From Silvanigrellaceae bacterium (GTDB lineage: Bacteria; Bdellovibrionota_B; Oligoflexia; Silvanigrellales; Silvanigrellaceae), in the NCBI GenBank assembly GCA_049423385.1, contig JBMSQQ010000056.1, positions 1 to 23,478 of the forward strand: a DNA stretch of 23,478 nucleotides, given 5' to 3'. Within the stretch, counting starts at the first letter, position 1; each line of letters begins with the position of its first letter. The notes under the pieces are model-generated. The model was not told the DNA's origin. It did not search any database and was given only the letters and a program-made list of their open reading frames with translations. Below, piece by piece: positions 2,271-23,478 of this stretch. The translations under genes were made by a program, and so were the position numbers.

Positions 2271-2772
2271 TGCTAACCCTCACTTTTCGAGCAAATTTGA
2301 ACAATTCAATCTCCTTGAATGCAAGTTTCTCCATATCATCAACCGCGGAGTAGTTCAGTTTGCCATTCGATTCCTTCATCATCGCCTCATACTCTGGCGA
2401 GAAACCCTTGCCTGCAGTCACAACGTCATTCTTGTACGTCTCCATTGTGGCTTTTTTTCCACGGCCCAAATCCTTGAGCACGTATTCCGAATCCTGCAAT
2501 GCAGACTTCTGAACCCACCCGATTTTTTTGCCCGCCATGATCTTCAGCCAACCCCTGTCGTGCTCGAGGATTTGCACGATTGTGCCGTAAGGAAACTTGC
2601 CCACGGCTTTGGAGAGAAATCCCGGCGACTCACGCAACACTGCCTCAGCCACTGCGATGGCTTGCCTTTCCTCGCTGGCAATTCCATTTTTCGAAACGGA
2701 AAAAACCAATGCCAAGAAGAGAAAACAAAGGCACCATCTTTTTTTACTTCGTATCAAATTGCCAGGCACCAT
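2254..2772 (-). CDS. Secreted SH3b domain-containing protein
   Basis: Signal peptide, then LRE-x-P...G-x-x-V-x-ILE...W-x-KI...GWV (bacterial SH3). C-terminal helical region AGKGFSPEYE...YSAVDDME. Confidence 0.8.
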   Translation of the reverse strand: MVPGNLIRSKKRWCLCFLFLALVFSVSKNGIASEERQAIAVAEAVLRESPGFLSKAVGKFPYGTIVQILEHDRGWLKIMAGKKIGWVQKSALQDSEYVLKDLGRGKKATMETYKNDVVTAGKGFSPEYEAMMKESNGKLNYSAVDDMEKLAFKEIELFKFARKVRVSSDLLE

Positions 2773-4690
2773 TCTTCCATTCCTTCAATTCACCCATTTC
2801 AACTGCAAGCCGACTTCTCTCTTTCAGCACCGCAGCTGGTGGAAAAACAACGCTTTCAAGATGGCTCAGTGCACCTTGCCAGTCGCCACGATAATAACAA
2901 TCGCGACCGTTCGTGAAAGACTTCAACTGCTGTCGATCTGACGGCGCGGCATACGTGTAGACACGGGTTGCGTTTGACTTTCCCTTGACGATCACCTTGT
3001 CGATTTCAACGATACCCGGCATGTCGAGCGCCGCAGCCGCCAAAATGCATTCTTCGCTCACGATAAGCGAAACTCCGTATGCCTTGCAAAGACCTTCCAA
3101 TCGGGCTGAGAGATTTACGGTGTCTCCGACTGCAGTATAATTGTGCCTGTGCCTCGCTCCTATGTTGCCAACAATCGCTGGCCCTGAATGCAAACCGACG
3201 CGTGTTCCCAAAGGCTTCAAGTCTGGACGACTTCTTTCCAGCTTTTCGTTGAAACGCTCCGCTGCCTTGTGGAAATTGATTGCCGTGGTCAGCGCGAGAT
3301 ATGCATGATTCGGCTGCTGCAGAGGCGCTCCCCAGATCGCCATCACGGCGTCGCCGATGAATTTGTCAACATAACCCGAGCCTGTGGTGACAAGATTCAC
3401 TACTTCATCGAAATATCCGTTGAGCACTTCCACCAGCTCGGTTGGTGTCAATCGTTCCGATAGTTCGGTGAAACCCACCAGGTCTGAAAACAAAACGCTG
3501 ACAATCCGGTTTTCCCCGAATCGCGAGACCTCAACCTCTCCGCGCCGGATGAGTTCCACCATCTCCGGTGACATGGAATGCTTGACCATCCCAGCCAATC
3601 TCAACTGATCTCGCCAGACAATTCGAAATACAAAAAAGAACTCACTACCGCCTGCCACAAGGGATGAAATCGCCAAGGGTATGGGAGAAAGCCACAAGTT
3701 GAACTTCCAAAACAGAAGGCTGACAAGCGAGCACAAACCAAGACTTAAAAAAACCAAGCCCCCCATGGCCCACGAACGAACACGTCTGGCCAGGATGATG
3801 ACCACGCTGAGCAATGCAAAGAGGAAACAGAGGCCAACACCCACAATCTTGTTGACGTCGCGCAGTCCCTCTCCCTGCAGGATGTTGGCAACTGCAGTTG
3901 CAGGAATGACCATTCCAGGCGCCTGCCTATCGACCGGAATGGGTTTGAGATCGTAGAGGCCAGGTGCAGTGTATCCCACAAACCAGACCTTGTTTTTAAA
4001 ATTCGAGAAATCGAAAGTCGTGGGTATCCCCTCTTCAATCTCGTTGTAGGCCTTGACGACATCGTAAAGTGAGACGTGTGGAAAACTCGTTTCGCGGTAG
4101 TTCCTCAGATAATGAGGTGCTGCAGGAAGGTCATGCGGACGCAACACCTGGTGAACGACATTTGCGAAACTGTTTCCGCCCAGGTAGCGTCGAAAAACAC
4201 CATCGAAATCGTTTTGAGAATTCACGTCGCCAAATCCGGCAGCAACAGATGAAAGCAGCGGGATTGGCCCCTTGGTGTTTCCCGACATGTTTCCGGCAGG
4301 AAAAATCGCGGGAACACCAGATTCCTTCAACATCTGTGAAAACCAAACGTCATCCTGGTGTCCGGATGCCGAAGGTTCGCTGAAGATGATGTCAAAGACA
4401 AGCATTCTTGCCGAGGAGTGGGATGCCACTTTTGCAACCGCACCATAGATTTGCCTCGGAAATGGCCAGGAAATCATTCTTTCCTTGTCCGCAAGAAACC
4501 GGTCTATGGAAGTCTGATCGACGACCACGAATGCAACTTCTTCTTGTTTTTCCAATTGCGTTGCGCGCTGCAGAAAATCGAAAAATGCAAAGGACATCCG
4601 ATTTTCTGCAAAAAACAGCGAACCACCGGCAACAGATCCGAGGAAAACCAGTGCAGCGGAGACCAGGATTTTGCTGTGAAACAGGCTCAA
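2744..4690 (-). CDS. CHASE2 sensor domain class III adenylate cyclase
   Basis: CHASE2 motifs WPFPR, FDIIFSEPS, D-x-DGVFRRY and VG-x-TAPGL-x-D-x3-P. Three TM helices. Cyclase motifs LFSDLVGFT-x-LSE, DKFIGDAVMA, R-x-GLH-x-G-x3-VGNIG and YT-x-x-GD-x-VN-x-x-ARLE. Lys and Thr at the specificity positions point to ATP (class IIIb). Confidence 0.93.
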   Translation of the reverse strand: MSLFHSKILVSAALVFLGSVAGGSLFFAENRMSFAFFDFLQRATQLEKQEEVAFVVVDQTSIDRFLADKERMISWPFPRQIYGAVAKVASHSSARMLVFDIIFSEPSASGHQDDVWFSQMLKESGVPAIFPAGNMSGNTKGPIPLLSSVAAGFGDVNSQNDFDGVFRRYLGGNSFANVVHQVLRPHDLPAAPHYLRNYRETSFPHVSLYDVVKAYNEIEEGIPTTFDFSNFKNKVWFVGYTAPGLYDLKPIPVDRQAPGMVIPATAVANILQGEGLRDVNKIVGVGLCFLFALLSVVIILARRVRSWAMGGLVFLSLGLCSLVSLLFWKFNLWLSPIPLAISSLVAGGSEFFFVFRIVWRDQLRLAGMVKHSMSPEMVELIRRGEVEVSRFGENRIVSVLFSDLVGFTELSERLTPTELVEVLNGYFDEVVNLVTTGSGYVDKFIGDAVMAIWGAPLQQPNHAYLALTTAINFHKAAERFNEKLERSRPDLKPLGTRVGLHSGPAIVGNIGARHRHNYTAVGDTVNLSARLEGLCKAYGVSLIVSEECILAAAALDMPGIVEIDKVIVKGKSNATRVYTYAAPSDRQQLKSFTNGRDCYYRGDWQGALSHLESVVFPPAAVLKERSRLAVEMGELKEWKNGAWQFDTK

Positions 4691-5534: not shown

Positions 5535-5594
5535 ACAAAGAGAACTTAAAAATAATTTGGATACATTTTGAATTTCAAAAAAACGGAGTGGATC

Positions 5595-6704
5595 ATGACA
5601 GAAAAGCAGGACTGGGTTGACGTTGGTAGCGTGGAAGAACTTTCAAAAAAGCCGTTGCAAGCCGTTTATGCCAACAAGACCCGGATAGCGGTCTCGTACA
5701 AGGACGGCGCCTTTGGAGCCATCTCTGGCGTCTGCAATCATGTGGGTGGCCCGCTGGGCGACGGCAAACTCGATGGTGAATTCGTCGAGTGCCCATGGCA
5801 CTTTTGGAAATTCGATCGCCGCACAGGAGTCGGTGAACCCGGTTTCGAACAAGACAAAGTGCCGGCATTCAGCACCAAGGTGGAGAACGGGCGACTGCTT
5901 GTGGATCTGGCCTCCGCGACCAAACGCACAAAGCAACCACATGAGCCACATCCCTTGGCGCGTCCTTTGAAACGTGAGCCCGGACCCATCCGTGTCATTG
6001 GAATCTCGACAACCAACATGACAGAAGGGCATCCACGCTTCTCAACCTCAGATGAATTGCTCGACGAGGCCCTTCAGCACGCCAAGGCATCGGGAATGGA
6101 AACCCGACTTGTGCGACTGCGCGATTTGAAGTTTCGCGCTTGTGAAGGCTTTTATTCGAAGTCGGCGAAAGCATGCACCTGGCCCTGTTCCATCACACAA
6201 ATGGATCCCACGGACGAACTCGACCAAGTCTATGAAGCAATTGTGCACTGGGCCGACATTTACATCATTGCAACGCCCATCCGCTGGGGCGCTGCGAGCA
6301 GCCTCTACTTCAAAATGGTCGAGCGGATGAATTGCATTCAAAACCAAAACACCATCGCGCACAAATCAGTTCTCAAGAACAAGACGGCGGGATTCATCAT
6401 CACCGGCGGCCAAGACAACATCCAGGGCACTGCCGGCCAGATGCTGGGATTCTTCTCGGAACTTGGGGTCCAGTTTCCGCAATACCCCTACGTCGCACAC
6501 TCACGTGGTTGGAATGCCGAAGACATGGAAAACAACATACGCGCCGTGGCCGAAGGAAAGTCGCTGCGTGAAGGCTCGCGGGCACTCGTTGATCGATGTG
6601 CCGAGATGGCAAAGCTGATGGTTGCCGGCACCCTGACCGAACAACCGCTGGTGCTGGGAGGACGCAAGGCACATCGTCCATCGGTAACACCCTCCGAAGA
6701 ATAA
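5595..6704 (+). CDS. Rieske [2Fe-2S] ferredoxin fused to an NADPH-dependent FMN reductase / iron-sulfur flavoprotein-like domain
   Basis: Rieske ligands CNH and CPWH. Flavodoxin-fold motifs ATPIRWG-x-x-SS, ERMN and G-x-IITGG-x-D. Cys motif CEGFYSKSAKACTWPC. RBS GGAG at 5585-5588 precedes ATG 5595. Confidence 0.88.
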   Translation: MTEKQDWVDVGSVEELSKKPLQAVYANKTRIAVSYKDGAFGAISGVCNHVGGPLGDGKLDGEFVECPWHFWKFDRRTGVGEPGFEQDKVPAFSTKVENGRLLVDLASATKRTKQPHEPHPLARPLKREPGPIRVIGISTTNMTEGHPRFSTSDELLDEALQHAKASGMETRLVRLRDLKFRACEGFYSKSAKACTWPCSITQMDPTDELDQVYEAIVHWADIYIIATPIRWGAASSLYFKMVERMNCIQNQNTIAHKSVLKNKTAGFIITGGQDNIQGTAGQMLGFFSELGVQFPQYPYVAHSRGWNAEDMENNIRAVAEGKSLREGSRALVDRCAEMAKLMVAGTLTEQPLVLGGRKAHRPSVTPSEE

Positions 6705-6723
6705 GTCCCAGGGGAGTTTGCCA

Positions 6724-8079
6724 ATGCCGCATATCGCACGATTAGCCTTTGTTCTTTCGCTGGCATGCTCCGCCTGTGTGCCAAGGTCTTTCAACCGATC
6801 TGAAAAAAGTCAGCTCAACGAGGCTTCGCAAGATTTTGCACGATGGTTCGCGGATTTGCCTTCAGGGCCTGTCGCCAACTATGAATTGATGTCGCGGGTG
6901 GTTTTCCACAAAGTTGGTTCAGAACTGCTTCCCGAATTCAACAGCAAGACAATTCCAGAGGCAAAAATTGAAAAGCGAATTGAGGTGACAAACACAGGCG
7001 GCAACAAAGGCAGCGCCGACGGTGGTGTCAGCATGGTCTGGATGCGCGACTATTTTCCCTTTGTCATCAAAAGCTCCGCTCCCGACGCGGGAGGCAAAGC
7101 GCGCTACATTCCTTATCTTTCCATCAATCCAGCGCGCAACAAGTTCTCAGCAAATTTGGGCGCAAATTCCAGCCCAGGACTGCTCAATCCGATTGTTGTT
7201 GCGATTGACAGCGAGTCGATTGGATCAGAGCGCGAAACAGTTTCCAGTTTGCAGATGCCTCTGGTTATTGAGGGAGGAAACCTTGTTGCAACAGGTGATC
7301 ATCTTATCCTGACGGATCATGTTTTCCTTCAAAATTCTCCGGAATACACGAAATACCTGAGTCGATCCGGCAAAAACTTCACGCGGGAAGCACTTGAAAA
7401 GATTTACCAGGACAATGGTTTTTACAAGGAAAACAGTCGCGGCGAGAAATTTGAATTTCGTTCGCCGGAACAGGTGAAAGCCGTGTTGTCGAGCTATCTC
7501 GAGGTCGACCCTTCGAAATTGATTTTTCTTCCTGCTCTTCCAGGAGAGGGCACGCATCACGTCGACCTCTTCGTTCTTGCCGTCGGCAAGAAAAATCTAA
7601 TGGTTCCGGAAATCACCGAAGAGGGAATTGCGACCTTGGCCTTTGAACAGGAAAAGGCACTCGCAAGAACAGCGATGGATTTTCTAAATTCGCAAGCGCG
7701 CCTGTTGAGCTCACAATACGGTTATACGGTCGACAGGCTCCCGATGGTTCCTCCAGTCTGGCAGTCGGAAGTCGGCGGCGAGAAACAGGCCGTATTTTTC
7801 AGCCCGGCGAATTCACTTTTGGCAAACCTTGGCGCAGACCGGAAGAAGATATTTCTGCCGCACTTTGAGGTTCCATCAGATTGGGGCGAGCCTTTCCGCG
7901 CCTACTCGGCCCAGGTTGAACAACAGTGGAAAAAGTATTTTGAAGACAAAGGATGGCAACCCTCATTCGTGACAGCCAACAAGGCAGCTCGTGCCTTTGG
8001 GCTCATTCGTTGTCTTACGGCTGTCGTGCCTTTCATTTCGGAAAGGCAGATGCTTAGGTTTGCCAAATTGGGCTACTGA
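6724..8079 (+). CDS. Agmatine deiminase / peptidylarginine deiminase family (pentein) lipoprotein
   Basis: Lipobox LACSAC. Pentein catalytic motifs W-x-RDY-x-P, EGGN, H-V-D and G-x-I-R-C-L-T (catalytic Cys at 8011-8013). RBS GGGGAG at 6711-6716. Confidence 0.8.
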   Translation: MPHIARLAFVLSLACSACVPRSFNRSEKSQLNEASQDFARWFADLPSGPVANYELMSRVVFHKVGSELLPEFNSKTIPEAKIEKRIEVTNTGGNKGSADGGVSMVWMRDYFPFVIKSSAPDAGGKARYIPYLSINPARNKFSANLGANSSPGLLNPIVVAIDSESIGSERETVSSLQMPLVIEGGNLVATGDHLILTDHVFLQNSPEYTKYLSRSGKNFTREALEKIYQDNGFYKENSRGEKFEFRSPEQVKAVLSSYLEVDPSKLIFLPALPGEGTHHVDLFVLAVGKKNLMVPEITEEGIATLAFEQEKALARTAMDFLNSQARLLSSQYGYTVDRLPMVPPVWQSEVGGEKQAVFFSPANSLLANLGADRKKIFLPHFEVPSDWGEPFRAYSAQVEQQWKKYFEDKGWQPSFVTANKAARAFGLIRCLTAVVPFISERQMLRFAKLGY

Positions 8080-8140
8080 GCAACGCACTGAAGTTCGCAG
8101 TATGCGCGCTAATTCTTATCGCAAACGGGAGTTTTCAAGG

Positions 8141-9973
8141 ATGACTCGCACTGCTTCCCTCATCATTGCAGCCCTTGCCATTTCTGGCTGCGTTCAGCGC
8201 AAATTCAACAACCAGGGTGAACTGAAAGAAGCGATGGGCAATTTCAATTCGGCTGAAAGCCTGGGGCTCTCGCCCGGTGCTTTGGATTGGAATTCCATCC
8301 GTGCCGAGACCAAGGGTGAACGACCGAAAGCATGGTCAGACACCTGGTGGCCACACTATTCAAAGGGAATTGCCGACCGTTATATATTGCGGAGCAGCGG
8401 AAAAAAAAGCGAAAATTTGTCGGGGCGTGGTGCTGTGCCTGGCAAATTCGTCGAGCAGTATCTGGCCGCTGTGGCGAAGGCGGATCCCAAAGAGTTGGCT
8501 TTGCTCTCGCCGGCGGAAAAATACGACTTTCTCATGGCCAGAGAATCCATCCCTGCGGGTCTTGGAGCCAAACTTTCACAGCAATCGCGGGCCTACTCGG
8601 GTTCCACAGCTGAAACGATTCTTCTGGGTCTTGAAGACAAGCTCGAAAAACTCGGTCAGTACGATGAATCCTACAAAACATTGAATGCCGAATATGCTCG
8701 CGAAGCCAACGGCAAGGCAGCAACCTTTCGGCCACTCCTCAAAGAAGGTTCGACCCTCAATGGTGAATTGAAGAGGTTTCTTCCCCTCACCACCCACGAC
8801 TGGACGCTTTGGCTCGACACCTTTTCTTGGGCACATGATGAAGAATGGGCCTGGATGGGAATTTGCAATGGTTGGTCGCCGGCGGCACTGCGTGAGCAGA
8901 AACCTCTACAAAGCGTTTTGGTCAGCAAAGGAAGCAAAAAAGTTCTGTTCACCGAGGGCGACATTCGTGGATTGCTGAGTTGGGTCTGGGGTTGGCAGTT
9001 TCCGGCCCAAACGCTCGGTGCCGGCGTCAGATGCGACGCTGCGGAATCAAGGACACTCGTAAAAAACAAACGAATCATCGACGGACGTCTTTGCGAAGGC
9101 AAAGGTTCGCGCCCTGGCCACTGCGTCGCTGCCAATACCATTTACATTGGCAACGACAATGCTTTTGCGAAAGTACCCGGAAGAACAATCCGGTTTGGCC
9201 TCGATCCGCAAAACAGAAACACTCACGAAGCAACGCTCAAAGCGGCATTGCCCAACGCGTACTACGAGGCAGAAGTCAGTGATTTGAGCAGCGGCGAGAA
9301 GCGAACACTTCTCATACAAATCACCCAAGCTTGCCGCGACATGAATGCCGGTTTGTTCCATGCTGCATTGGTTGATTTGGTGGGACGCAGAAAATCGGGA
9401 TTCGTGGTGGATGCCGACAGATACACCCAGGTGTGGAATCAGCCCGTCTATGCCTACGAGATGACTTACCTGCCAATTCTCAAGACGGATGGTTCAACAG
9501 CTCCTGCGGGAACTCCGGTGGACGTAAAGGATGTGCTCAACGACCCATTTGCCGAGTTCAGGGCAGAAAAGACGAGCGCGATAGTGCAGGTCAGGGCCAA
9601 GGTCATTTACGCATCTGAAAATGGTCCATTTGCAAAATACGATTCAAGCGGCGCACAAGAAACACATGAAGAACTCGTCGCAGACTACACCATCGAAATA
9701 AACAACAAAGGAAAAATCATTGGAGGCGAGTGGGGACTCCTGCCGGGAACTCCTGGTGTGAAGCCGCTCAAAGCCAGCAATTCAACTGCTGCAGTCGCCC
9801 CTGATTTCATTTGGAACTACCCCGAGAATGCAAAGCCTGAGGGCGAGTTGGTCGACTATGCGACACTCAAGAAAATCCATGGCTGTTCTTTGAAGACATC
9901 TTCAAGTGGCCAGTTCGACCTCAGCCCATTTGTTGAAAAGCCCCTGCCCTATGTGGAATGTTCGCTGGACTGA
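8141..9973 (+). CDS. Transglutaminase-elicitor (Phytophthora GP42-like) family lipoprotein
   Basis: Lipobox AISGC. Motifs WSDTWWP, LSPAEKYD, W-x-GICNGW, F-x-x-GDI-x-GL, D-x-NAG-x-FH, QVWNQPVY, IIGGEW and PDFIW. ATG 8141 was chosen from the signal peptide and GGGAG at 8127-8131. Confidence 0.85.
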   Translation: MTRTASLIIAALAISGCVQRKFNNQGELKEAMGNFNSAESLGLSPGALDWNSIRAETKGERPKAWSDTWWPHYSKGIADRYILRSSGKKSENLSGRGAVPGKFVEQYLAAVAKADPKELALLSPAEKYDFLMARESIPAGLGAKLSQQSRAYSGSTAETILLGLEDKLEKLGQYDESYKTLNAEYAREANGKAATFRPLLKEGSTLNGELKRFLPLTTHDWTLWLDTFSWAHDEEWAWMGICNGWSPAALREQKPLQSVLVSKGSKKVLFTEGDIRGLLSWVWGWQFPAQTLGAGVRCDAAESRTLVKNKRIIDGRLCEGKGSRPGHCVAANTIYIGNDNAFAKVPGRTIRFGLDPQNRNTHEATLKAALPNAYYEAEVSDLSSGEKRTLLIQITQACRDMNAGLFHAALVDLVGRRKSGFVVDADRYTQVWNQPVYAYEMTYLPILKTDGSTAPAGTPVDVKDVLNDPFAEFRAEKTSAIVQVRAKVIYASENGPFAKYDSSGAQETHEELVADYTIEINNKGKIIGGEWGLLPGTPGVKPLKASNSTAAVAPDFIWNYPENAKPEGELVDYATLKKIHGCSLKTSSSGQFDLSPFVEKPLPYVECSLD

Positions 9974-10095: not shown

Positions 10096-11475
10096 ATGTC
10101 AAGAACAAGAACACAAATCAATTGTTGGGGTTTTCTTGCGCTGGGTCTTCTGGGTTGCCAAGGCGGCACTCCCAAGGAGCGTTGTTCTGCCACAATGGCA
10201 GTCAGTGATGGAAGCACGGTGAAGACCGAACTTCTGGGAGGCGCTGTTCTGCTGCTGGAAGGCAGTTCCATGGCGCCTGGCAAAGAGGGCACAAAATCGA
10301 CAGCGCAATGCACTGCATTTGTGCGCGTCCTTTCCAATTCGGGAAACACATACAAGGCACAAATCTGGACAGCGCGTCATTGCCTTCCGGATTTTTCCTC
10401 ACGCATACTGAAAGCCGAACTCAGCATGTTTGATGGTCGCAGTGGATACGTCAAGCTGGATGCGACGTTCCCTCTTGCTATCACACGCAATGGTTTTTTT
10501 GATCTCGTTTCCACCAGGATTCCCGAATTCCTCGATGCAGAAAAGAAACAAAAAAATCCAGCCAGAATTGTTCTCGACTACACTTTCCTCGAGGAAGAGG
10601 GAAAAAAGAACTACGGCGCAGACTGCAAACAATCCAGCGATGAAGTCTCTTCGCCAAACCGCTTGTGTTCAGCCTTGCAGGATTTTCGAATGTTGGAGGC
10701 TGAACTCAGCTCGAAATCGAGCATTGGGGAAAATATTCTCGTCGCTCTTCAGGTATCCCAAAAAAATGGAACGAATGGACTAGCGACAGAATGGATCAAA
10801 ACTGTTCAAAGGCAGGCCGAACTGGAGCTCGACATCTCGCGCGGAAGGTTTGTTGATATTTTTCTTCAATGCGGAGAAAGCTCACCTTCAGTCGTCTGCA
10901 ATTACAAGGACACGCTTGAAGCCCTTGCAAGAAAGTGGCGTGCACCGGGTCGTGATTTACTTGCGGAGGCGGCTAGAGATGGTTACACGGCACCTGGCAA
11001 AAGCTATTCTGAATTCAAGAAATCCATTGCCGTTGACCATTTCAGCAAGACACTCCTGCCCCTGTTCCTGAAAGTTCAGGGTGGAATTCAGGGTGGAACA
11101 GTTCCTTTGCTTTTTGCAGGAAACTTTGCAGATTCAACGGGCAAGTTCTTGAGCTTCTCCGCTGCCAGACTCGCCGACTTCTACAAATCATCAGGCTCGA
11201 ATCCGAGTTACAGCTTCTTTTCCCGCGACACCACGCGGGATGCGCTGATGAGGTTCGAGAGTCCCGCCGGAAAATCTCTCATTCTGGACAGCGGGGACAG
11301 CGGCAGCGCACTGATGTTCGACGAATCCACCCCGTTCATGGTGCTGAGTGCAAAGGGAGAAAAATCAATCAGTGGTGGTGCCTCGATTCTTGCCCTGCCC
11401 GAGGCAACGGTCGAAACCAGCGGCAGCGCCGACGCAGCCGGAAACGGAAAAAGGGTTGCGGCGTATTGCAAATAG
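10096..11475 (+). CDS. Trypsin-like (S1/PA clan) serine protease lipoprotein with a large internal insertion
   Basis: Lipobox LLGC. CTAF...WTARHC (His at 10378-10380) and GDSGS (Ser at 11299-11301). Confidence 0.7.
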   Translation: MSRTRTQINCWGFLALGLLGCQGGTPKERCSATMAVSDGSTVKTELLGGAVLLLEGSSMAPGKEGTKSTAQCTAFVRVLSNSGNTYKAQIWTARHCLPDFSSRILKAELSMFDGRSGYVKLDATFPLAITRNGFFDLVSTRIPEFLDAEKKQKNPARIVLDYTFLEEEGKKNYGADCKQSSDEVSSPNRLCSALQDFRMLEAELSSKSSIGENILVALQVSQKNGTNGLATEWIKTVQRQAELELDISRGRFVDIFLQCGESSPSVVCNYKDTLEALARKWRAPGRDLLAEAARDGYTAPGKSYSEFKKSIAVDHFSKTLLPLFLKVQGGIQGGTVPLLFAGNFADSTGKFLSFSAARLADFYKSSGSNPSYSFFSRDTTRDALMRFESPAGKSLILDSGDSGSALMFDESTPFMVLSAKGEKSISGGASILALPEATVETSGSADAAGNGKRVAAYCK

Positions 11476-12082: not shown

Positions 12083-12240
12083 CACATTCAGCAGCAGAGG
12101 AACCGGTAACTAGGGGAAAATTGAACATCAATCGTTTGACTGTTTGGCAAAAGCCGGAGCAATATTTGAATTTCACAAGCCAACCCTGCATGTTTGGCGG
12201 TTTGCTTTCTCAATTGGGAGCCTCCAGAAATGAATATTAA
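12083..12240 (+). repeat. Copy 1 of a duplicated upstream regulatory module (operator palindrome, TTGACT, RBS, first codons)
   Basis: Aligns with 12840-12996. Positions 12114-12145 match 12870-12901 at 30 of 32 bases, and the ATGs at 12230 and 12986 sit at the same 756 bp offset. Confidence 0.88.
12120..12141 (+). promoter_or_regulatory. Palindromic operator ATTGA-N3-TCAAT next to a TTGACT -35-like hexamer, upstream of zrgA
   Basis: ATTGAACATCAAT at 12120-12132 and TTGACT at 12136-12141. Both are conserved in the second copy. Confidence 0.6.
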
Positions 12241-12817
12241 TGCAGCAGAATTTCCACTCCGCCGGGTCACAACCATTTTTTGTTCAGCAGCATTCATGTC
12301 ACCGCTTGCAGCACAGGCGGGCGGAAAAGGACACGCTGCGCACGAACACGGCGTTGCCACGCTCAATGTGATTGCAGAGGGAACCAGCGTCACGGTTCAA
12401 CTCGAAACGCCGGCCGAAAGCATCTATGGTTTTGAGCACGAGGCCAAAAAGCCGGCCGAAGTCAAAAAACGCGATGATGCCGTGAATAAGCTCAGGAACA
12501 ACGCGGAGAAGATGTTTCTGCTCGATACATCCCTCGGGTGCAAGGTTGTGAACGCAGAGGTGAAACCCTTTGTGGTGGAAGGCAATGATTCGGGCTCGAA
12601 GGCCTCGAACGAGCCAAAGAACAAAAAGAAAGGCACCCACAGTGAAGTTCATGCGACGTTCAAATTCGAATGCAGCAAGCCAGTTGCAGGCAGCGCCTTG
12701 AAATTCGCGGCCCGGAGTCAATTCAAGGCACTGTCGACTCTCAAAGTCCAGGTTCTTTCCGGCGACAAGCAGAGTGGCAGCACGATCAAAAACGATGCAG
12801 GAACTGTTGAACTTTAA
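12230..12817 (+). CDS. zrgA: DUF2796 / ZrgA family periplasmic zinc-binding protein
   Basis: Signal peptide and motifs AHEHG-x-A-x-LN, E-x-PA-x-x-I-x-GFEH, C-x-V, HSEV-x-A-x-F-x-FEC and L-x-VQ. RBS GGGAG at 12216-12220. Confidence 0.88.
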   Translation: MNINAAEFPLRRVTTIFCSAAFMSPLAAQAGGKGHAAHEHGVATLNVIAEGTSVTVQLETPAESIYGFEHEAKKPAEVKKRDDAVNKLRNNAEKMFLLDTSLGCKVVNAEVKPFVVEGNDSGSKASNEPKNKKKGTHSEVHATFKFECSKPVAGSALKFAARSQFKALSTLKVQVLSGDKQSGSTIKNDAGTVEL

Positions 12818-12839
12818 ATTTCAAAAATCTAAAGCAAGC

Positions 12840-12996
12840 CACATTCGACAGCTGAGAGCCCGGTCATGCGGGAAAATTGATCATCAATGGTTTGACTGTT
12901 TAGAAAAACTCCGCTGTAAGTCTGAATTTGACGAGCAAACCTCGTTGTTCGACGATTAACTCATTCTTTGGGGAGCTGATACAAAATGAATTTAAA
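12840..12996 (+). repeat. Copy 2 of the duplicated upstream regulatory module
   Basis: CACATTC...CCGGT...GGGAAAATTGATCATCAATGGTTTGACTGTTT...TGAATTT...GGGAGC...AAATGAAT matches copy 1. Confidence 0.88.
12876..12897 (+). promoter_or_regulatory. Palindromic operator ATTGAT-C-ATCAAT next to a TTGACT -35-like hexamer
   Basis: Perfect 6-1-6 inverted repeat at 12876-12888 and TTGACT at 12892-12897. Confidence 0.6.
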
Positions 12997-13435
12997 CCTT
13001 GCCCTCATTGTGTCCTCAATTGCACTTTTTTCTGGCGCAGGATGCAGCGGAAAAGCACAGGGCGACAGCTCAGAGGCATCCCGCGCCAGCACCAGCGAAG
13101 TCAAAGGACAATTTTTCAATGCAAAAATTGTTGGCTGGAGTGTGGGTCCAGAAGTCAGCGGAGATTCCCTGCAGGACATTCGAAACGCATGTGAAATTGA
13201 AATCACCACACCCTCGGGTGAAGTTCCCTCCAGCTTGTCCGTGCAAAAAGTATTTCCATTCATGAAGGTGCACGGACACGGCGCCCCAGACGAACAAATT
13301 GTCACCGAAGTGGTTGGCAACCGAATTAAAGTTTCAAAAATTTCATTCATCATGAGCGGCCCTTGGGAATTGCACGTCCAGGCCACCGTCAACGGCCAAT
13401 CGGGTGAAGTCGAAATTCCGGTGGTGGTTCCGTAA
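12986..13435 (+). CDS. YtkA/FixH-like Ig-fold lipoprotein (putative metal-binding)
   Basis: Lipobox SGAGC. Motifs P-x-M-x-x-HGHG and F-x-M-x-G-x-W-E-L are typical of YtkA-like domains. RBS GGGGAG. Confidence 0.78.
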   Translation: MNLNLALIVSSIALFSGAGCSGKAQGDSSEASRASTSEVKGQFFNAKIVGWSVGPEVSGDSLQDIRNACEIEITTPSGEVPSSLSVQKVFPFMKVHGHGAPDEQIVTEVVGNRIKVSKISFIMSGPWELHVQATVNGQSGEVEIPVVVP

Positions 13436-14353
13436 ATGACACCAATTTTGAAAATAAGATTTTCATTTTTTTCTGCTTCTGTTCTCGCTTTTGTTGTTGT
13501 CGCCATCAGTTTACCTTCACACGCCTGGGCCTGTGCTTCATGCGGAAGTGGGAGTGATGATCCGCTTGTTTTGTGGCCCAACGAAGAATTGAAGACCTAC
13601 GTTGGCGTTTCGACCAGTTCACGCTTTGAAACTGTAGATCCACAAGGAAAATACGGTCAGGAATCAGGTCCGAAGTCACGCGACGCTTTTACATTCGCCG
13701 TCGGTAAGGCTTTGCGCAATGACTTCTTCTTTACGCTCACACTTCCTGTGCAACAAAACAGGCTTGAAGGCTCATCGCTCAGGTCACTGGGCGACCCCAT
13801 GATTGCAGCCCGCTGGTCTTGGTGGATGCCCGATTTCAGCGAACCTCTCCGCCCTCAAATTCAAATGATGACGTCCTATAAACTCGCGCATTCAAAGTCT
13901 CTCCAGGAAACAACCCGTCCGGATTTGCTCGATGCCTTTGGCACTGGAATTCCGGAACTCAAATTGGGCATCGATACGTTTTGGGGAATGGGCACCGTCA
14001 AAGGTGGAGTCGCTCTGGCAGGGCTATTTCCCGAAGAACGAAAACTGGGAAGAACGACGGTTTTTCCTGGAAACGGTCTGCGGGCAACATCAACAGTTGG
14101 GTTTTCCTTGGGTGGAGACAACAAGATGATCGGTGGACTGGTGCGTGAAATGCGTGAAAACCGCCGCAACGACGGTCAACGCGTTGAGAAAAGTGAAGTC
14201 TTATCCCACTCCATCTTCGTGACGCTCGACTGGTCGCCCGCACAGCACAACATGCTACGATTAAGCCTGACCGACAAAGGCCGCGTTCTGGAGAACAGAA
14301 ACATGATTGCCGCCTCGTCGTTGAGTTTTGCATGGTTGGCGACGTGGGAATAA
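13436..14353 (+). CDS. Putative outer-membrane beta-barrel (transporter-like) with an N-terminal CxxC
   Basis: Signal peptide ending AWA, then CASCG. LGD and GTG motifs resemble SphA/MetA-pathway-type barrels. Amphipathic strands and a C-terminal aromatic residue (LSFAWLATWE). Starts directly after the upstream stop (TAAATG). Confidence 0.65.
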   Translation: MTPILKIRFSFFSASVLAFVVVAISLPSHAWACASCGSGSDDPLVLWPNEELKTYVGVSTSSRFETVDPQGKYGQESGPKSRDAFTFAVGKALRNDFFFTLTLPVQQNRLEGSSLRSLGDPMIAARWSWWMPDFSEPLRPQIQMMTSYKLAHSKSLQETTRPDLLDAFGTGIPELKLGIDTFWGMGTVKGGVALAGLFPEERKLGRTTVFPGNGLRATSTVGFSLGGDNKMIGGLVREMRENRRNDGQRVEKSEVLSHSIFVTLDWSPAQHNMLRLSLTDKGRVLENRNMIAASSLSFAWLATWE

Positions 14354-14379
14354 CGCTGCAGAGCATTCGGAATTCAAAA

Positions 14380-14787
14380 ATGACAAAAACGCTTTCGATA
14401 ACGCTGCTTGCTGCAGGAAGCACATGGCTCTTTCCACTCTTCGGAGTCGCATCACATGATGCAGAAAAGCCTGCGGCAAATTGCCCGCCGTTGGACAAAA
14501 AAAAATTGAAGGAAATTGTTGAGGCGAGCGAGGGCAAGAAAGTCGACTTGGTGTTTTTCTCGAGTTGGTGCAGCGACTGTGGCAATCACCTCAAAAAACT
14601 CGAAGGTCCAGGCAAAGTCCTGGTTGGAACATTCGATAAACAGCCGCGCATCGAAAAACTTGTCGCCAAACTCAAACTCCCGAATCGCTGTTTTACAGAC
14701 TCAGGTGTGGCCAAAAAACTCAAAGTCACAACGGTTCCAGCCGAACGCGCTGTGACTCAAGAGACTCTTTCGCTGCTTCAAAACTGA
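14380..14787 (+). CDS. Exported thioredoxin-fold (TlpA/ResA-like) protein
   Basis: Signal peptide, L-x-FF-x-SWCSDC active site, and a cis-Pro loop (V-x-TVP). Confidence 0.78.
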   Translation: MTKTLSITLLAAGSTWLFPLFGVASHDAEKPAANCPPLDKKKLKEIVEASEGKKVDLVFFSSWCSDCGNHLKKLEGPGKVLVGTFDKQPRIEKLVAKLKLPNRCFTDSGVAKKLKVTTVPAERAVTQETLSLLQN

Positions 14788-14883
14788 AACCGTTCAATTC
14801 AACAGCGCAACTTGACTTGACGGTGACTCTTGGATTTTGAAAATGATGTCGGCCCACGCCGCTTTAGTAAGGGAAACAAAAGC

Positions 14884-16389
14884 ATGAACAATGTGCGTGA
14901 AACGGTTGCCAAGCTCTCTGTAAGCTGTGGAGTGGTCTTGGTGTTGACGACCCTCGCCTGTGGGAAATTGAACGACAAGGGCAGTGGCTCTGGCACCAGC
15001 TCTGATGAACAGGTCGTCGAAATCCCGTTCCGTGCCACAGTGGGTGACGAAGACTTCGACTGCAACAAGACCTACGCCCTGGGGACAGACAACGCGTCAG
15101 TGCAGCCCAAAGATTTCCGTTATTTCGTTTCGGATATCAGATTCGTGAAGACTGACGGCAGCAAAGAGAGCCTCAAGCTCGAACAAGACGGTCAATGGCA
15201 AACCGGCAATGTAGCCCTGCTCGATTACGCCAACACCGATGCCAATTGTGCGCAGTCCAGCTCTCCAGATGCATCAACCCGCAAGTTCGTTCGAGGAATC
15301 ATCAAGAAAGGTGACTACGTCGGAATTGAATTCGCGCTTGGCCTTGATGACAAAACCAATCACCTTGATGCAGCAACAGCTCAACCTCCGCTCAACAACC
15401 CCGGGATGTGGTGGTCGTGGAAAGGAGGCTACAAGGAAGTGAGACTTGAACTGACGGTGCTTTCCGATGGCCCTGCCAAAAGCAAAGACTATCTGTTCCA
15501 CCATGGTGCAACGAGTTGCACAGGTTCAACGCCAGAAACGTTTGCCTGTACACACGAAAACAACACAACCATCAGCTTGACAGGGAACCCGTTGCAATCG
15601 GGTGTCAGATTCGACATTGCGAAGCTTTTTGATGGCGAGAAGATTCAAGAAGAACTCACACAGAATTTGTCGTCGACCAAACAAATGGGTGCCGTGGCGA
15701 GTCCTTCATCATGGGGATGCATGGCATTCCCGGGCGACGGCGACTGCGAATATTTGTTCGCCAATATTGGACTTGCATTCAAAGACTCGGTCGCTGGACT
15801 CGTGCCCGCCCAGAAAGTCTTCTCTTTGTTTGCCAACACCTCAACAACCCAATCAGCGGATCCTTCGGGCATCAAGACAGATGCGAGCTTGTGCACAGAC
15901 GCCAAGAAAACAACCACTGGCGACAACTGCTTTGTGCGTGATCCGGCCTTGAATGTTTCGCTGGAAGTGGGCGACAGCGCGCACGCCTCTGGCGCAGCAG
16001 GGTTTGCGAGCCACAACGCTGGTTTGACTTGTGTGACCTGCCACCAAAGCAATGGCCCAGGCAAAGGACTTCATACCTTTTCTGGAACCGTTTACAAAAA
16101 AGACCTCACAACACCCGTAGCGGGTGCAATCGTGAAAATCTTCAACGAAAAGCCACCAGCCTCGGGTGCCGACACTCGAGTTCCATTGAAACAATTCATT
16201 ACCGACAAAAGTGGCAACTTCTACACAACGACCGATTATCTTGCGCAAATCACAAATGCCAACAAAGAATATTGGGTGAGCGTGACCGATGCCGACGGTA
16301 CTGGTGAGAAAAGAATGAACTCCTCAAAAGTCACCGGGCAATGCAGTCAATGCCATGTGGGTGGGCAGAGGATCTGGATAGACAAGTGA
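14884..16389 (+). CDS. mbnP: MbnP family copper-binding lipoprotein (metallo-mystery-pair four-Cys type) fused to a C-terminal di-haem c-type cytochrome domain
   Basis: Lipobox TLAC. Motifs DFRYFVSD, WQ-x-x-NVALLD, F-x-LG...NH, PLN-x-x-GMWWSW-x-x-GYK (WxW at 15412-15420), H-x-G-x-T-x-C and GCM-x-x-PGD-x-DC-x-x-LF-x-x-IGL. Then CVTCH (16030-16044) and CSQCH (16342-16356). Confidence 0.88.
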   Translation: MNNVRETVAKLSVSCGVVLVLTTLACGKLNDKGSGSGTSSDEQVVEIPFRATVGDEDFDCNKTYALGTDNASVQPKDFRYFVSDIRFVKTDGSKESLKLEQDGQWQTGNVALLDYANTDANCAQSSSPDASTRKFVRGIIKKGDYVGIEFALGLDDKTNHLDAATAQPPLNNPGMWWSWKGGYKEVRLELTVLSDGPAKSKDYLFHHGATSCTGSTPETFACTHENNTTISLTGNPLQSGVRFDIAKLFDGEKIQEELTQNLSSTKQMGAVASPSSWGCMAFPGDGDCEYLFANIGLAFKDSVAGLVPAQKVFSLFANTSTTQSADPSGIKTDASLCTDAKKTTTGDNCFVRDPALNVSLEVGDSAHASGAAGFASHNAGLTCVTCHQSNGPGKGLHTFSGTVYKKDLTTPVAGAIVKIFNEKPPASGADTRVPLKQFITDKSGNFYTTTDYLAQITNANKEYWVSVTDADGTGEKRMNSSKVTGQCSQCHVGGQRIWIDK

Positions 16390-17465
16390 GCATTCAACGC
16401 AACTTCACCCCCCTGGGAATCTTCCTTCTTTGCACCTTCCGATCGGTTGCGTTCTGTGGAGTGGATGAAAAAAAAGCGACCTGGGGAAAAGCCCTTTTCT
16501 TCGAACCACGTCTTTCTGCCAACGGAAAAATCTCGTGCGCCACCTGCCACGACCCCCAGCGTGCTTTCACCGAAAACAAAGCCAGCTCTGTAGATATTGA
16601 AGGGCGACCTGTTCATCGGAATTCACCAACCCTCATCAACGCCGCGCACATGGACGTTTTGACCTGGGCCAACCCGGTGCTGCGCAAATTGGAAAACCAA
16701 ATCATCGTTCCTTTGTTTCTCGACACTCCAGGCGAAATGGCATTGATTCGGGTGTGGCCAAAGGTGCGTGCTGAAGTTCTCGAAAAATCGCCACACATTG
16801 ATATGTTCCGCGCGGCTTTTCCGGAAGACAAAGGCTCACCCGACACACGTCACCTGTTCTCGGCATTGGCCGAGTATGTGCGCACGCTTGTGGCATTCGA
16901 CAGCCCCTATGACCTGTTTCTTGCCGGCAACAAAAAAGCAATGTCGGCTGAAGCGCAAAAAGGACGTGAACTGTTCTATTCAAAACGAACCAGCTGTGGC
17001 GAATGCCATTCGGGAGTTCTTTTGAGCAATGCCGCAAAGCCCGAATTCCTCAACAGCAAAGACCCCTTGAGCCTTGCGCCCGCAAAAGACAGGCAGGGTA
17101 AAATACTCCAATTTGCTCACAACGGACTCTACAACTGGGACAAAAAAGGCGGCGCACCGGAAAAAGGCGAAGGTCTTTACGAGTTCACACACAAGCCCGA
17201 AGACCGGGGTGTCTTCCGCATTCCGCCGCTGCGCAACGTGGCCCAAACTCCGCCCTATATGCACGATGGAAGTATTGCCACGCTTGAGGAGGTTGTTGAG
17301 CACTACAGTCGCGGAGGGCTCAACAAATGCGCCGCAGGAATATCTTGTGGTTCCGCTCCGCAAAAGAATTCGCTCATTCGCCCTCTCAAACTGACCAAGC
17401 CTGAAAAGAGAGCGTTGGTGGAATTCCTGCGTTCATTGTCGACATCTGCTCCGAGCGGGAAATAA
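16386..17465 (+). CDS. mbnH: MbnH family di-haem enzyme (MauG / cytochrome c peroxidase superfamily)
   Basis: G-x-x-LFF-x-x-RLS-x-NG-x-x-SCATCH (16536-16550), RNSPTL-x-N, LTWANP, CGECHSG (16995-17009) and FR-x-P-x-LRNV-x-x-T-x-PYMHDGS. The GTG start overlaps the mbnP stop (GTGA). Confidence 0.9.
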   Translation: MSIQRNFTPLGIFLLCTFRSVAFCGVDEKKATWGKALFFEPRLSANGKISCATCHDPQRAFTENKASSVDIEGRPVHRNSPTLINAAHMDVLTWANPVLRKLENQIIVPLFLDTPGEMALIRVWPKVRAEVLEKSPHIDMFRAAFPEDKGSPDTRHLFSALAEYVRTLVAFDSPYDLFLAGNKKAMSAEAQKGRELFYSKRTSCGECHSGVLLSNAAKPEFLNSKDPLSLAPAKDRQGKILQFAHNGLYNWDKKGGAPEKGEGLYEFTHKPEDRGVFRIPPLRNVAQTPPYMHDGSIATLEEVVEHYSRGGLNKCAAGISCGSAPQKNSLIRPLKLTKPEKRALVEFLRSLSTSAPSGK

Positions 17466-20322: not shown

Positions 20323-21147
20323 ATGATGGGAGCCGTGTGTGGCGACGTGATTGGTTCGGTGTACGAATTCACCAAACGCAAGGGCAAGGATTTCGAGTTT
20401 TTCCATGCCGCAGCAAAGACAACCGACGACAGCTACCACACCATCGCCATGGCTGAAGCCATCCTCACCGGACAACCGTATGAAAAACTGCTGGTGGATT
20501 TCTTTTGGAAATATCCTGATGGCGGCTACGGCGGACGATTTTGGGATTGGGCCAAACTTGGCGGAGGCGCACCTTACAACAGCTTTGGCAACGGCGCTGC
20601 CATGCGTGTGAGTCCTGCGGCCTGGATCCACGACACACTTGAAGAAACGCTCTCAACTGCGGAAAAATACACCGCGGTGACCCACAATCATCCCGAAGGC
20701 ATCCGTGGAGCAAAGGCCATCGCCACTGCAATCTTTATGGCCCGCAACGGTTCGACTGCAGCCGAGATCCGAAAATTCATTCAAACAGAATACAAATATG
20801 ACTTGTCATTGAGTCTGGACGCAATGCGACCCACCGCCCGCTTTGATGAAACGTGTCAGGTCACGGTGCCACAGGCTCTGACGGCTGCTCTGGAGGCCAC
20901 GGATTTCAACGACGCACTGCGCAATGCCATTTCACTCGGAGCCGACTCCGATACGGTGGCGGCGATTGCGGGATCTGTTGCCGAGCCCCTCTTTGGAGGA
21001 ATTCCAGAAGAGACGTTGGCATTTGTATGGCAGAGGCTGAATGCAGAATTGAAAAAGATAGTTCTTAAGTTCGCAGAAAAATATCGCCTTGAGCATCTCA
21101 AAGCAATTCGAGCACAACCAGTCGATGTGCTTAAAATTCAATTGTGA
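20323..21147 (+). CDS. ADP-ribosylglycohydrolase (ARH/DraG family)
   Basis: Motifs GA-x-x-GD-x-x-GS, TDDS, SFGNGAAMRVSP, THNHP and G-x-DSDT-x-AAIAG. Confidence 0.93.
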   Translation: MMGAVCGDVIGSVYEFTKRKGKDFEFFHAAAKTTDDSYHTIAMAEAILTGQPYEKLLVDFFWKYPDGGYGGRFWDWAKLGGGAPYNSFGNGAAMRVSPAAWIHDTLEETLSTAEKYTAVTHNHPEGIRGAKAIATAIFMARNGSTAAEIRKFIQTEYKYDLSLSLDAMRPTARFDETCQVTVPQALTAALEATDFNDALRNAISLGADSDTVAAIAGSVAEPLFGGIPEETLAFVWQRLNAELKKIVLKFAEKYRLEHLKAIRAQPVDVLKIQL

Positions 21148-21288: not shown

Positions 21289-21876
21289 TCAAAGCCGATA
21301 GTTGACTGTAACCGCCGGCCGCAGCGACTGCGACGAAACCCCAGCCGCAAAAAACTCAACCTGTTTTGCAGAGCTCGTGGAGCCGATCAAATTGAGGCTG
21401 TATTCGATTCCCAGATTCATGGACACCGCCGCACCGCCGAAGTTCAATCCGGGCTGAACGGCAATCGTCCAGAACCCGTCGCGTCCCAATGATGCGCTCG
21501 CCTCGGAATAACGCAGCAAGACGTCGCTGTAGGCGCGCAACACCGGCGAATCTTGCGGAGGAACTTCGCTACCGAAAGGGCGGTCGCGAAATGTCAGGCC
21601 CACGGCATAAGCCGTGGTGTGGTAGTCCTTCTCGGCACCGCGTGCGGACGCCGGAACGTTCTGCAGGTCCAGATAAAAGAAACCGCGAAGGTTGCTGCCG
21701 TAGGAAAGGCCAAAAGCTGTGCGGCTTGTGTCGGGCTCGGAAAGCTTCCACAGGATTTCGGTCGATGCAGCTGTGGTGGGTTTGGTTTCATTTGCCTTGT
21801 CTGCATCGGCGGCGAAGGCCTGGGCTGATGCAATGGACGACAATACGAGACTCGAAAGTATGAATTTGCTTTTCAT
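21289..21876 (-). CDS. Secreted protein, probable small outer-membrane beta-barrel
   Basis: Signal peptide ending AFA, alternating amphipathic strands, and a beta-signal-like C-terminus VTVNYRL. Starts 25 nt after the protease stop, with AAGGA upstream. Confidence 0.65.
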   Translation of the reverse strand: MKSKFILSSLVLSSIASAQAFAADADKANETKPTTAASTEILWKLSEPDTSRTAFGLSYGSNLRGFFYLDLQNVPASARGAEKDYHTTAYAVGLTFRDRPFGSEVPPQDSPVLRAYSDVLLRYSEASASLGRDGFWTIAVQPGLNFGGAAVSMNLGIEYSLNLIGSTSSAKQVEFFAAGVSSQSLRPAVTVNYRL

Positions 21877-21901: not shown

Positions 21902-22831
21902 TTATTTTGTGCAGGCATAAGCGATTTCGGTGATTTTCGCGATACTGACGCTGCACGCAGCAGCAACCAGAGTAATATTGACTGCGCAGATCCCTCCGGC
22001 GCTCACGGCTGTGCCCACGGTGCAGCCAGCCGGTAACAAATATGCATTTGCAGCGCAAATGGCATAGGCAACTGTGGGAACCGACATGTTCACGCCACAA
22101 ATTGAAATCGTGGATTGTCCGAAGTCCAGAACACCGCCACCACAGAACGGGTTGAGCGTGTGACACTCGGGTGAATAGGGAGTCCTTGTCACGTCTGCAG
22201 ATGGCGCATTCAGAAATGCAACGCCAAAATTGACGTTCTTGGATTCTTTCACTGTCGAGCCCAGATGGATGCCCACAACCTTGTTGTTTTGCAGAATGGG
22301 TGCACCAGAGGAACCTTGAATCGTGTCGTTTGAGTAATTCAACAAGGATGAAGATTCACTCTTTTGAAGATTTTCACCGCGTGCAGTTAAAAGTTTGCGC
22401 CGTTCGATTGAGAATGCGGTCACAGTGGTTTTGGAATTATCGTTGGCCACGGCAGATTCGAAATAGGAATCAATTCCGGTCACGGTGAGTTTTGCAACGT
22501 CTGCCTTGGCGAATTTCTGAATCGCCTGAATGGTTCTCTTTTGGTTGTGAATCGTGATGGTGTATTCGCTGGGCTGCGGTGCATCTGAAAAACAGTGGCC
22601 TGCTGTGGTGAGCTCATTTTTTCCCGAGGCAAAAACAGTACAGATGGGTTGTCCCTTGTAGTCGAGGGAGCCAATTCTGGAAAGAAGGTAAGAGCTGAGT
22701 TCTGTGGTTCTGTCGTCTTTCCCAATGATTGATTTTGAAACTGAATCTGGAGATTGCGGTGGTGTTCCGCAGGCAGACAACGCCAGACCGCCGAACAGTA
22801 TCAAACTCAAAACTTGAAATTTCTTCAGCAT
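21902..22831 (-). CDS. Trypsin-like (glutamyl-endopeptidase-type) serine protease lipoprotein with a Cys-rich hydrophobic C-terminal domain
   Basis: Lipobox LSAC. Motifs IIGKDDR, CT...TAGHC, DVA, DT-x-x-GSSGAP and VVGIH. The last 87 aa contain 8 Cys. Confidence 0.88.
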   Translation of the reverse strand: MLKKFQVLSLILFGGLALSACGTPPQSPDSVSKSIIGKDDRTTELSSYLLSRIGSLDYKGQPICTVFASGKNELTTAGHCFSDAPQPSEYTITIHNQKRTIQAIQKFAKADVAKLTVTGIDSYFESAVANDNSKTTVTAFSIERRKLLTARGENLQKSESSSLLNYSNDTIQGSSGAPILQNNKVVGIHLGSTVKESKNVNFGVAFLNAPSADVTRTPYSPECHTLNPFCGGGVLDFGQSTISICGVNMSVPTVAYAICAANAYLLPAGCTVGTAVSAGGICAVNITLVAAACSVSIAKITEIAYACTK

Positions 22832-22914
22832 GAAAAAGTTTCCTCTGAAAGGTGTTTCAAAAAAGGACACAATTGAAATGCGGATCTCGGAAATTCGATA
22901 TCCGGAGCACCTTT

Positions 22915-23217: not shown

Positions 23218-23276
23218 CTGCGGTAAGTCACAAAAGTCTGTTCCCCAGAAGTCGAATCGAAATGAAGGAGTTCAAT

Positions 23277-23348
23277 ATGCAAAAAAGTTACAAACTCGTC
23301 GGTACATTGAGATTCGTTGTTTTCAAACATCAACACACACGTCATTGA
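23277..23348 (+). CDS. Candidate 23-aa small ORF (MQKSYKLVGTLRFVVFKHQHTRH)
   Basis: Strong RBS GAAGGAG (23264-23270) 6 nt before the ATG, just downstream of the sigma-54 site. No homology evidence. Confidence 0.35.
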   Translation: MQKSYKLVGTLRFVVFKHQHTRH

Positions 23349-23468
23349 CCAGGAATGGAGTGGCAATTCCAAATGCGACTGGTATCAGCCAGACTGCTAG
23401 GCTTGAAAAGAGCTCAACTGCAACACCCCTGTCATCACGATTTGCGGAAGTCACCCGGAGATAGCCTC

Positions 23469-23478
23469 ATGAAACATG
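23469..23478 (+). CDS. Probable start of a CDS running off the window (MKH...)
   Basis: GGAG at 23457-23460 followed by ATG AAA at 23469. Only three codons are visible. Confidence 0.35.

Follow-up and report, generated by a model that had tools for sequence, protein, structure and literature searches.

Polymorphic toxins have been described with several releasing peptidases (HINT, ZU5, PrsW, caspase-like, and PVC-metallopeptidase), and PLA2 and metallopeptidase domains are listed among their domains (Zhang et al. 2012, PMC3482391; this and the other comparisons with published systems refer to portions of the cited texts). The locus described here resembles them in its conserved N-terminal trafficking and peptidase part, its variable C-terminal cargo, which includes PLA2 and metallopeptidase types, and a downstream gene that tracks the cargo. 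It differs in that the releasing enzyme is of the trypsin fold and Glu type on a short lipoprotein, and the downstream gene encodes a predicted outer-membrane barrel. The word "trypsin" was not found in the larger part of the main text of PMC3482391. In the S8-PTS, a secreted serine peptidase likewise processes a polymorphic toxin and frees a membrane-seeking segment (PMC9424270; bioRxiv 10.1101/2025.07.24.666436). However, that system is Gram-positive and is defined by a separate subtilisin-family (S8) peptidase gene and BetaH toxins, whereas here the protease has a chymotrypsin (trypsin) fold, is fused in cis, and belongs to Gram-negative Oligoflexia. We therefore rejected membership in the S8-PTS.

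Halocin C8 is Cys-rich and hydrophobic. It is a small antimicrobial peptide cut from a larger secreted precursor, at whose C terminus it lies as the tail described here does, and it also occurs as a polymorphic-toxin cargo (bioRxiv 10.64898/2026.07.27.741052). Its N-terminal part is an immunity protein and its protease is given as unknown, whereas here the N-terminal part is itself a protease. BSAP-1 of Bacteroides fragilis is a lipoprotein antibacterial that is activated by proteolysis and adjoins a self-resistance beta-barrel OMP variant (bioRxiv 10.64898/2026.08.05.742979). Unlike the present system, it is a MACPF pore former cut in trans, and its neighboring OMP replaces a widespread orthologue, whereas the barrel type found here is present in only 3 of 131 genomes of the class. 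By sequence, the present proteins match neither the halocin C8 nor the BSAP-1 family. The glutamyl endopeptidases V8, Esp, and BIEP and the Spl proteases share the fold and the equivalents of His213 and Thr190; in glutamyl endopeptidases these two form the S1 pair and serve Glu or Gln binding (PMC5508998). The protease described here differs from these enzymes in being lipoprotein anchored and in having a predicted cleavage site of its own, followed by a C-terminal cargo. Its IIGxDDR-type mature start is presumably a further motif likeness to glutamyl endopeptidases. In the literature, supplementary domain lists aside, we found no description of this cassette. By analogy, its mode of action would be that of polymorphic toxins that have a releasing peptidase; for its class of protease, its cargo family, and its type of partner, we found no counterpart.

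The cassette lies in a 23,478-nucleotide stretch of a Silvanigrellaceae genome (GCA_049423385.1, contig JBMSQQ010000056.1), referred to here as the window. Its anatomy could be read directly, and Table 1 gives the features. The protease-cargo gene starts with ATG, preceded by an AGAGGA-type ribosome site, and most full-length homologues of its product (P0001) also have Cys at the lipobox place. The partner gene starts 25 nt past its stop. The remnant at the right end of the window has two large deletions and internal stops, and the first codons of its own partner gene lie at the contig end. The initial annotation had covered the protease and its tail; lipobox Cys, junction Glu, downstream beta-barrel partner, and cargo polymorphism are additions to it.

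Table 1. Features of the protease-cargo cassette and its surroundings (window coordinates)
Feature	Position	Strand	Description or basis
Whole gene, 309 aa (P0001)	21902..22831	-	Lipoprotein signal, V8-like protease, Glu site, and six-Cys cargo
Lipoprotein signal peptide (predicted)	22769..22831	-	Lipobox LSA-C21, read from sequence
Protease domain, residues 35-222, chymotrypsin fold, V8/Spl type	22166..22729	-	Triad H79, D111, S175; S1 T170, H189
Self-cleavage site (predicted), Y-S-P-E222 / C223 (hydrophobic-x-x-Glu)	22166..22177	-	Conservation, motif counts, and P0011 start
Cargo N-terminal segment, variable, residues 223-244, C223-x6-C230	22100..22165	-	Glu-to-first-core-Cys length varies
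Six-Cys core, C245-C307 (13-10-11-10-13)	21911..22099	-	Predicted beta-hairpin and helices, predicted nested disulfides
Partner gene, 195 aa, signal peptide and predicted small outer-membrane beta-barrel	21289..21876	-	Atlas match, synteny
Decayed second cassette, L004 type, divergently transcribed	23262..23478	+	blastn blocks versus L004, tblastn, three-frame reading

The initial annotation had described a serine protease followed by an almost uncharged, Ala/Gly/Val/Ile-rich tail of 87 residues with mirror-spaced Cys. Translation of positions 21905-22165 (minus strand) bore this out: the Cys residues (223, 230, 245, 259, 270, 282, 293, and 307) are separated by exactly 6, 14, 13, 10, 11, 10, and 13 residues, the GTAVSAGG turn sits between C270 and C282 at the center of the mirror, and 4 of 87 residues are charged (2 K, 1 D, and 1 E). 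Hydropathy in 19-residue windows is 1.1-1.8 across most of the core. An exact five-gap palindrome arose in 0.6% of 200,000 tail shuffles, and across a genome scan a palindrome alone is weak, only suggestive evidence. We regard the spacing as real because it is conserved among homologues. It is exact in 47 of 54 sequences, down to ~30% identity, a count that favors exact-spacing matches since the tail HMM was built from five tails with this spacing. Five of the remaining sequences change only the central gap (10, 10, 12, 12, and 14); L021 has a shorter center and an altered second gap, and P0008 carries a different cargo. A later find, L035, has the spacing 14-10-7-10-13. The sequences counted here and below are related to one another, and therefore the counts overstate independence.

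The tail also occurs apart from the protease. Among 1.84 billion representatives, the HMMER tail profile gave 38 matches; after one 1137-aa repeat protein (E 1e-3) was dropped, 37 remained, 16 of them protease fused and 21 without a protease. The initial annotation had asked whether the tail is ever free-standing, and these 21 answer it. By eye, 14 have a plain signal peptide, 5 have a lipoprotein signal and an acidic leader, and 2 are fragments. Among the five close homologues, the tail is 82-91% identical, compared with 53-70% for the protease. Sequence comparison thus supports the tail as an independent, conserved, and mobile domain. In 38 nonredundant cores, the central 35 residues average 0.6 charged residues with a GRAVY of 1.13; the net charge is most often 0. 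The distance from the Glu to the first core Cys is 18-49 residues in homologues, and the segment after the cleavage site is hypervariable. A word-index search for longer fusions matched only the six close homologues. In one subgroup (L012, L013, L014, L015, P0019, P0023, P0026, P0027, P0031, and P0037), the protein ends in CC-x4-C, which probably forms a fourth disulfide.

The protease itself matched Pfam Trypsin (E 6e-7), and its model matched SplB (E 5e-11), exfoliative toxins, V8, Esp, and the Bacillus glutamyl endopeptidase (BIEP) in Foldseek. P0001 has the complete His-Asp-Ser triad and the S1 pocket of glutamyl endopeptidases, H189 and T170 being the equivalents of His213 and Thr190 when placed relative to S175. 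At these S1 positions, 25 of 27 aligned fusions have Thr/Ser and 26 have His. The only residues invariant in all 27 are D169, S175, E222, and the six core Cys. The conservation of the junction Glu is thus a direct observation; it lies 44-52 residues past the catalytic Ser, always with a hydrophobic P4 residue. Independently of alignment, 47 of 50 proteases have hydrophobic-x-x-Glu between Ser+43 and Ser+53, compared with a 10% background in same-size windows elsewhere in the same domains (two sequences in which the Ser motif was not found were skipped). The motif is also present in 20 of 23 sequences added outside alignment A3. The protease-free P0011 is colinear with L004 from the residue after the Glu, and its signal peptide, as judged by eye, ends at that point and is followed by W-G-C-D-S-N-C-K-W-Y-Q. 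Because Glu-selecting S1 residues occur together with a conserved hydrophobic-x-x-Glu site, and because the mature part of P0011 would start just past the Glu, the protease likely releases the tail by cutting itself. The autocatalytic release proposed in the initial annotation is therefore probable, and the product would be a peptide of 87 residues starting at C223. Protease-free lipoprotein forms (L014, P0019, P0026, P0039, and P0040) keep the Glu before the same mature starts, and thus cleavage in trans is possible. Of the 27 aligned fusions, 6 lack the triad Asp, and one His is Ser, so some of these proteases may be weak or dead.

The initial annotation had drawn the tail as a helical hairpin stapled by nested disulfides. 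The AF2 tail model (29 rows, pLDDT 68.5) instead starts with a beta-hairpin around C245-G246, after which come four helical stretches; the full-length model agrees and places the tail beside the protease. The two arms differ in secondary structure, and the numerical mirror is therefore partly a coincidence of a fold-back domain; nor do the arms always change together, as the L035 spacing shows. The nested pairing (C245-C307, C259-C293, and C270-C282) fared better and is weakly supported as a prediction. Length changes in the core concentrate in the central gap and loop, and covariation is enriched at column pairs with i+j near 64, the nested-pair axis (p 0.007-0.014 against permuted columns), in a weak test on 39 sequences uncorrected for kinship.

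Neither the tail nor its homologues matched a known family or fold in Pfam, NCBIfam, and the other family and fold searches. The suggested likeness to halocins and bacteriocins found no backing either: no halocin C8 (TIGR04449) or bacteriocin family matched the tail or its homologues. For TIGR04449, NCBIfam gave no match with E limits of 5 and 1, which are to be read with the HMMER filters, which drop most matches above ~0.1. Fold searches with the tail model, whose pLDDT is 68.5, gave a best VIA Z of 4.5, to unrelated proteins, and no Foldseek match below E 4. A PDB sequence search with the tail alignment returned one match (E 6.2), and an ESM Atlas search with the tail returned no usable match. 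Nested-disulfide helical hairpins and saposin-like folds (thionins, glycocins, twin-Cx9C proteins, and saposins) were the structural classes considered in this comparison.

The six-Cys domain is patchily distributed: it is present in 11 of 131 genomes of the class (Oligoflexia) and, within the genus, in 3 of 12 other genomes. A protease-only profile reached 25 of the 131 genomes, with 52 matches. We read 21 regions from the higher-scoring of these matches that had not been seen before and found there 22 genes with a different cargo: 7 with a second hydrophobic hairpin rich in Cys, 3 with a CxxC-type hairpin (of which one is truncated), 5 with a glycine zipper and coiled coil, 2 with a metallopeptidase (Astacin E 4e-5 and Reprolysin E 0.03), 1 with a PLA2-like domain (E 2e-5), and 4 with other cargos. 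The same protease cassette, with a conserved N-terminal part, thus carries at least eight types of C-terminal cargo. The swapping is directly visible in L012, L196, L198, and L213, in which the junction can be common, down to the first residues of the cargo, and the remainder is exchanged. The six-Cys core and the second hairpin type have no detectable homology (hhalign probability 0.4%). A DNA pattern scan of genome contigs gave at least 119 loci, of which HMM confirmed 7, all already in the class search; it sets no limit on the distribution. A sample of 301 genomes, taken from the phylum to which a Myxococcales record belongs, gave no match, and a related-locus search in metagenomes confirmed none.

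Several of these loci have features of their own. The second Cys-rich hydrophobic cargo family (L196, L198, L207, L208, L209, L212, and L195) ends in C-xx-L-C-x-D-x-x-L-x-D-C and has no family match. L200:1389-4566 contains two tandem protease-cargo-barrel cassettes, one with a PLA2-like cargo, and G060 has 8 protease-cassette matches. Another V8-like protease gene, with no cargo, is convergent with the barrel gene in L002:3-779 (G009). Three glycine-zipper cargos (L199:575-1759, L213:1598-2752, and L214:507-1685) are followed not by a barrel but by a conserved lipoprotein of 385-395 aa without a Pfam family, and the two are possibly a two-component pore former. These lipoproteins look MACPF-like, but Pfam gave no MACPF match, and we set that idea aside.

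The partner of the window gene is a secreted protein whose top ESM Atlas match is an outer-membrane beta-barrel cluster (score 0.96), and it had no match in Pfam, NCBIfam, or PHROGs. It has the predicted hallmarks of a small outer-membrane barrel: a signal peptide, alternating beta-strands, and a C-terminal beta-signal. A crude barrel heuristic was passed by 20 of 27 partner genes, which had been picked by eye as barrel-like, compared with 23 of 2758 genome genes; one partner gene has a weak OMP_b-brl match (E 0.036). The linkage was observed directly. A barrel-like gene lies immediately downstream in 16 of 21 scorable six-Cys loci (12 of 15 from genomes and 4 of 6 from metagenomes, where 2 of 8 loci end at a contig edge and are unscorable). 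The five without one are L015, L017, and L022, which are fragments or truncated genes, and the signal-peptide-only L190 and L193, which have small non-barrel genes downstream. Among loci with other Cys-rich or PLA2 cargos, 12 of 13 have a barrel-like gene. The exception is L195, a Cys-hairpin fusion that appears intact and yet lacks a barrel within 1.2 kb. Barrels score 0.03-0.05 against each other when a similar protease carries a different cargo and 0.18-0.29 when a distant protease carries the same cargo. By these scores, where the histories of protease and cargo part, the barrel tracks the cargo and not the protease. Taken over the full set of 210 pairs, the correlation of barrel similarity is weak with cargo (rho 0.15) as well as with protease (rho 0.25), and barrels beside clearly homologous six-Cys cargos are mostly unalignable to one another. 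A complex prediction with the barrel (residues 30-195) and the tail scored 0.00, with the fold of the partner uncertain, and so counts neither for nor against binding. Promoter and terminator scans stayed at chance level.

Related genomes record losses of the cargo. In G013, sequences matching the flanks of the window at 87-92% identity lack positions 21925-22848, nearly the whole protease-cargo gene, and the barrel is intact, with 24 synonymous and 10 nonsynonymous codon differences. The cassette that is intact in G013 is the one left as a deleted, interrupted copy at the right end of the window. The cargo gene is broken or truncated and the barrel-like gene open in L005, L008, and L204. Of the four six-Cys loci in G001, only one is intact; another is frameshifted, a third has an internal stop, and the fourth is 5' truncated. 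A cargo lost beside a partner that is kept is what would be expected of toxin and immunity genes, although recent deletions would look alike.

The reading that we find somewhat more convincing than its alternatives is that the V8-type protease cuts itself after Glu222, the freed hydrophobic and probably disulfide-stapled peptide injures the envelope of competing bacteria, and the barrel guards the producer. Export and lipid anchoring through C21 are very likely, given the lipobox. The nested disulfides would then probably form in the periplasm, and cleavage after the hydrophobic-x-x-Glu site is, on the comparative evidence, highly likely to follow. The near-neutral hydrophobic core may next partition into a target membrane or a membrane-protein interface and harm the cell, toward which cargo polymorphism and composition tip the balance slightly. 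That the barrel would be a cognate immunity or resistance factor we rate just short of even. Altogether, the sequences suggest a polymorphic-toxin-like system whose cargo is probably membrane active, with a cognate guard as the best reading of the barrel. A wider claim is more tentative: that Oligoflexia have an undescribed class of interbacterial toxin in which a lipoprotein Glu-protease releases interchangeable cargos, the commonest being new stapled hydrophobic peptides that attack the Gram-negative outer membrane, with immunity given by a dedicated, fast-evolving small outer-membrane barrel instead of a soluble or inner-membrane protein. Several observations count against antagonism. No known family or fold lends the core a function. 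Cationic pore formers differ from it, since it is near neutral and predicted to be disulfide locked; L195 has no barrel, L190 and L193 have non-barrel neighbors, and the triad has decayed in some members. Barrels on the six-Cys side change faster than expected with a conserved toxin, which argues against simple immunity, and so does the description of classical immunity proteins as usually intracellular in the portion of PMC9424270 used here.

The linkage of barrel and cargo could also reflect display or export, which we consider unlikely: the barrel would be a cognate partner that keeps the cargo on the outside of the producer or aids passage of the lipoprotein through the outer membrane, and the released peptide would act on contact or as an adhesin or coat. 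This would account for the barrel beside every six-Cys gene with an intact lipoprotein N terminus (the window, L002, L004, L012, L013, L014, L016, L021, L035, L187, and L189), for its absence from the signal-peptide-only forms with context (L190 and L193), and for barrels beside unrelated cargos, such as the PLA2-like one. However, barrels are kept after cargo loss, their variability far exceeds what an export machine should show, and one of ~8 strands is too narrow to pass a folded domain. Cognate, fast-changing pairs of ligand and barrel, a hypervariable segment right after the cleavage site, and a near-neutral core would suit a strain-specific signal or identity tag in place of a toxin, with the barrel as its outer-membrane receptor, as in kin recognition. 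We consider this improbable, as the loci read show no signaling or regulator gene accompanying the pair, sibling cargos include enzymes of the conflict-system type, and loss and decay are frequent. It is more improbable still that the tail stays uncleaved, as an anchor or regulatory domain that tethers or silences a protease that is the working part. Its hydrophobic core and its place beside the protease in the full-length model fit this idea, and the initial annotation had allowed for an anchor. But 21 of 37 representatives have the domain and no protease, the invariant Glu matches the predicted specificity of the enzyme, the tail is better conserved than the protease, a lipid anchor is already present at the N terminus, and the triad has decayed in some members.

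If the preferred reading of self-cleavage and antagonism is true, a trypsin-fold, Glu-specific protease joins the known processing enzymes of polymorphic toxins, together with a library-unmatched family of small disulfide-locked peptides and a beta-barrel cognate partner. From the conserved cleavage rule, the mature peptides to be synthesized and assayed can be read off exactly. The cassette is also a handle for mining: any sequence beyond the Glu is a candidate secreted effector of a group that has been little studied and is related to predatory bacteria. Stable, near-neutral peptides would be attractive antibacterial leads if they act on Gram-negative envelopes.

Other genes in the window also deserve mention. 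An ADP-ribosylglycohydrolase gene (20323-21147, plus strand) is convergent with the barrel gene and is not beside the cassette in L002. A metal-uptake-like cluster (12194-17465, plus strand) comprises ZrgA, a small lipoprotein, an unannotated secreted protein of 305 aa, and, by eye, a thioredoxin-like protein, as well as MbnP fused to a c-type cytochrome-like C terminus and a di-haem MauG/MbnH-type protein. A 459-aa lipoprotein (10096-11475, plus strand) has the serine-protease-like motifs TARHC and GDSGSA and no Pfam match. Two adjoining secreted lipoproteins with N termini alike (6718-9973, plus strand) differ in kind: one is weakly peptidyl-arginine deiminase-like (E 0.005) and the other is transglutaminase-elicitor-like (E 4e-24). 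A CHASE2 adenylate/guanylate cyclase, an SH3 protein, and an M48 peptidase form one run at 1413-4690 (minus strand), and at 5568-6704 (plus strand) a Rieske domain is fused to an NADPH-dependent FMN reductase/flavodoxin domain.
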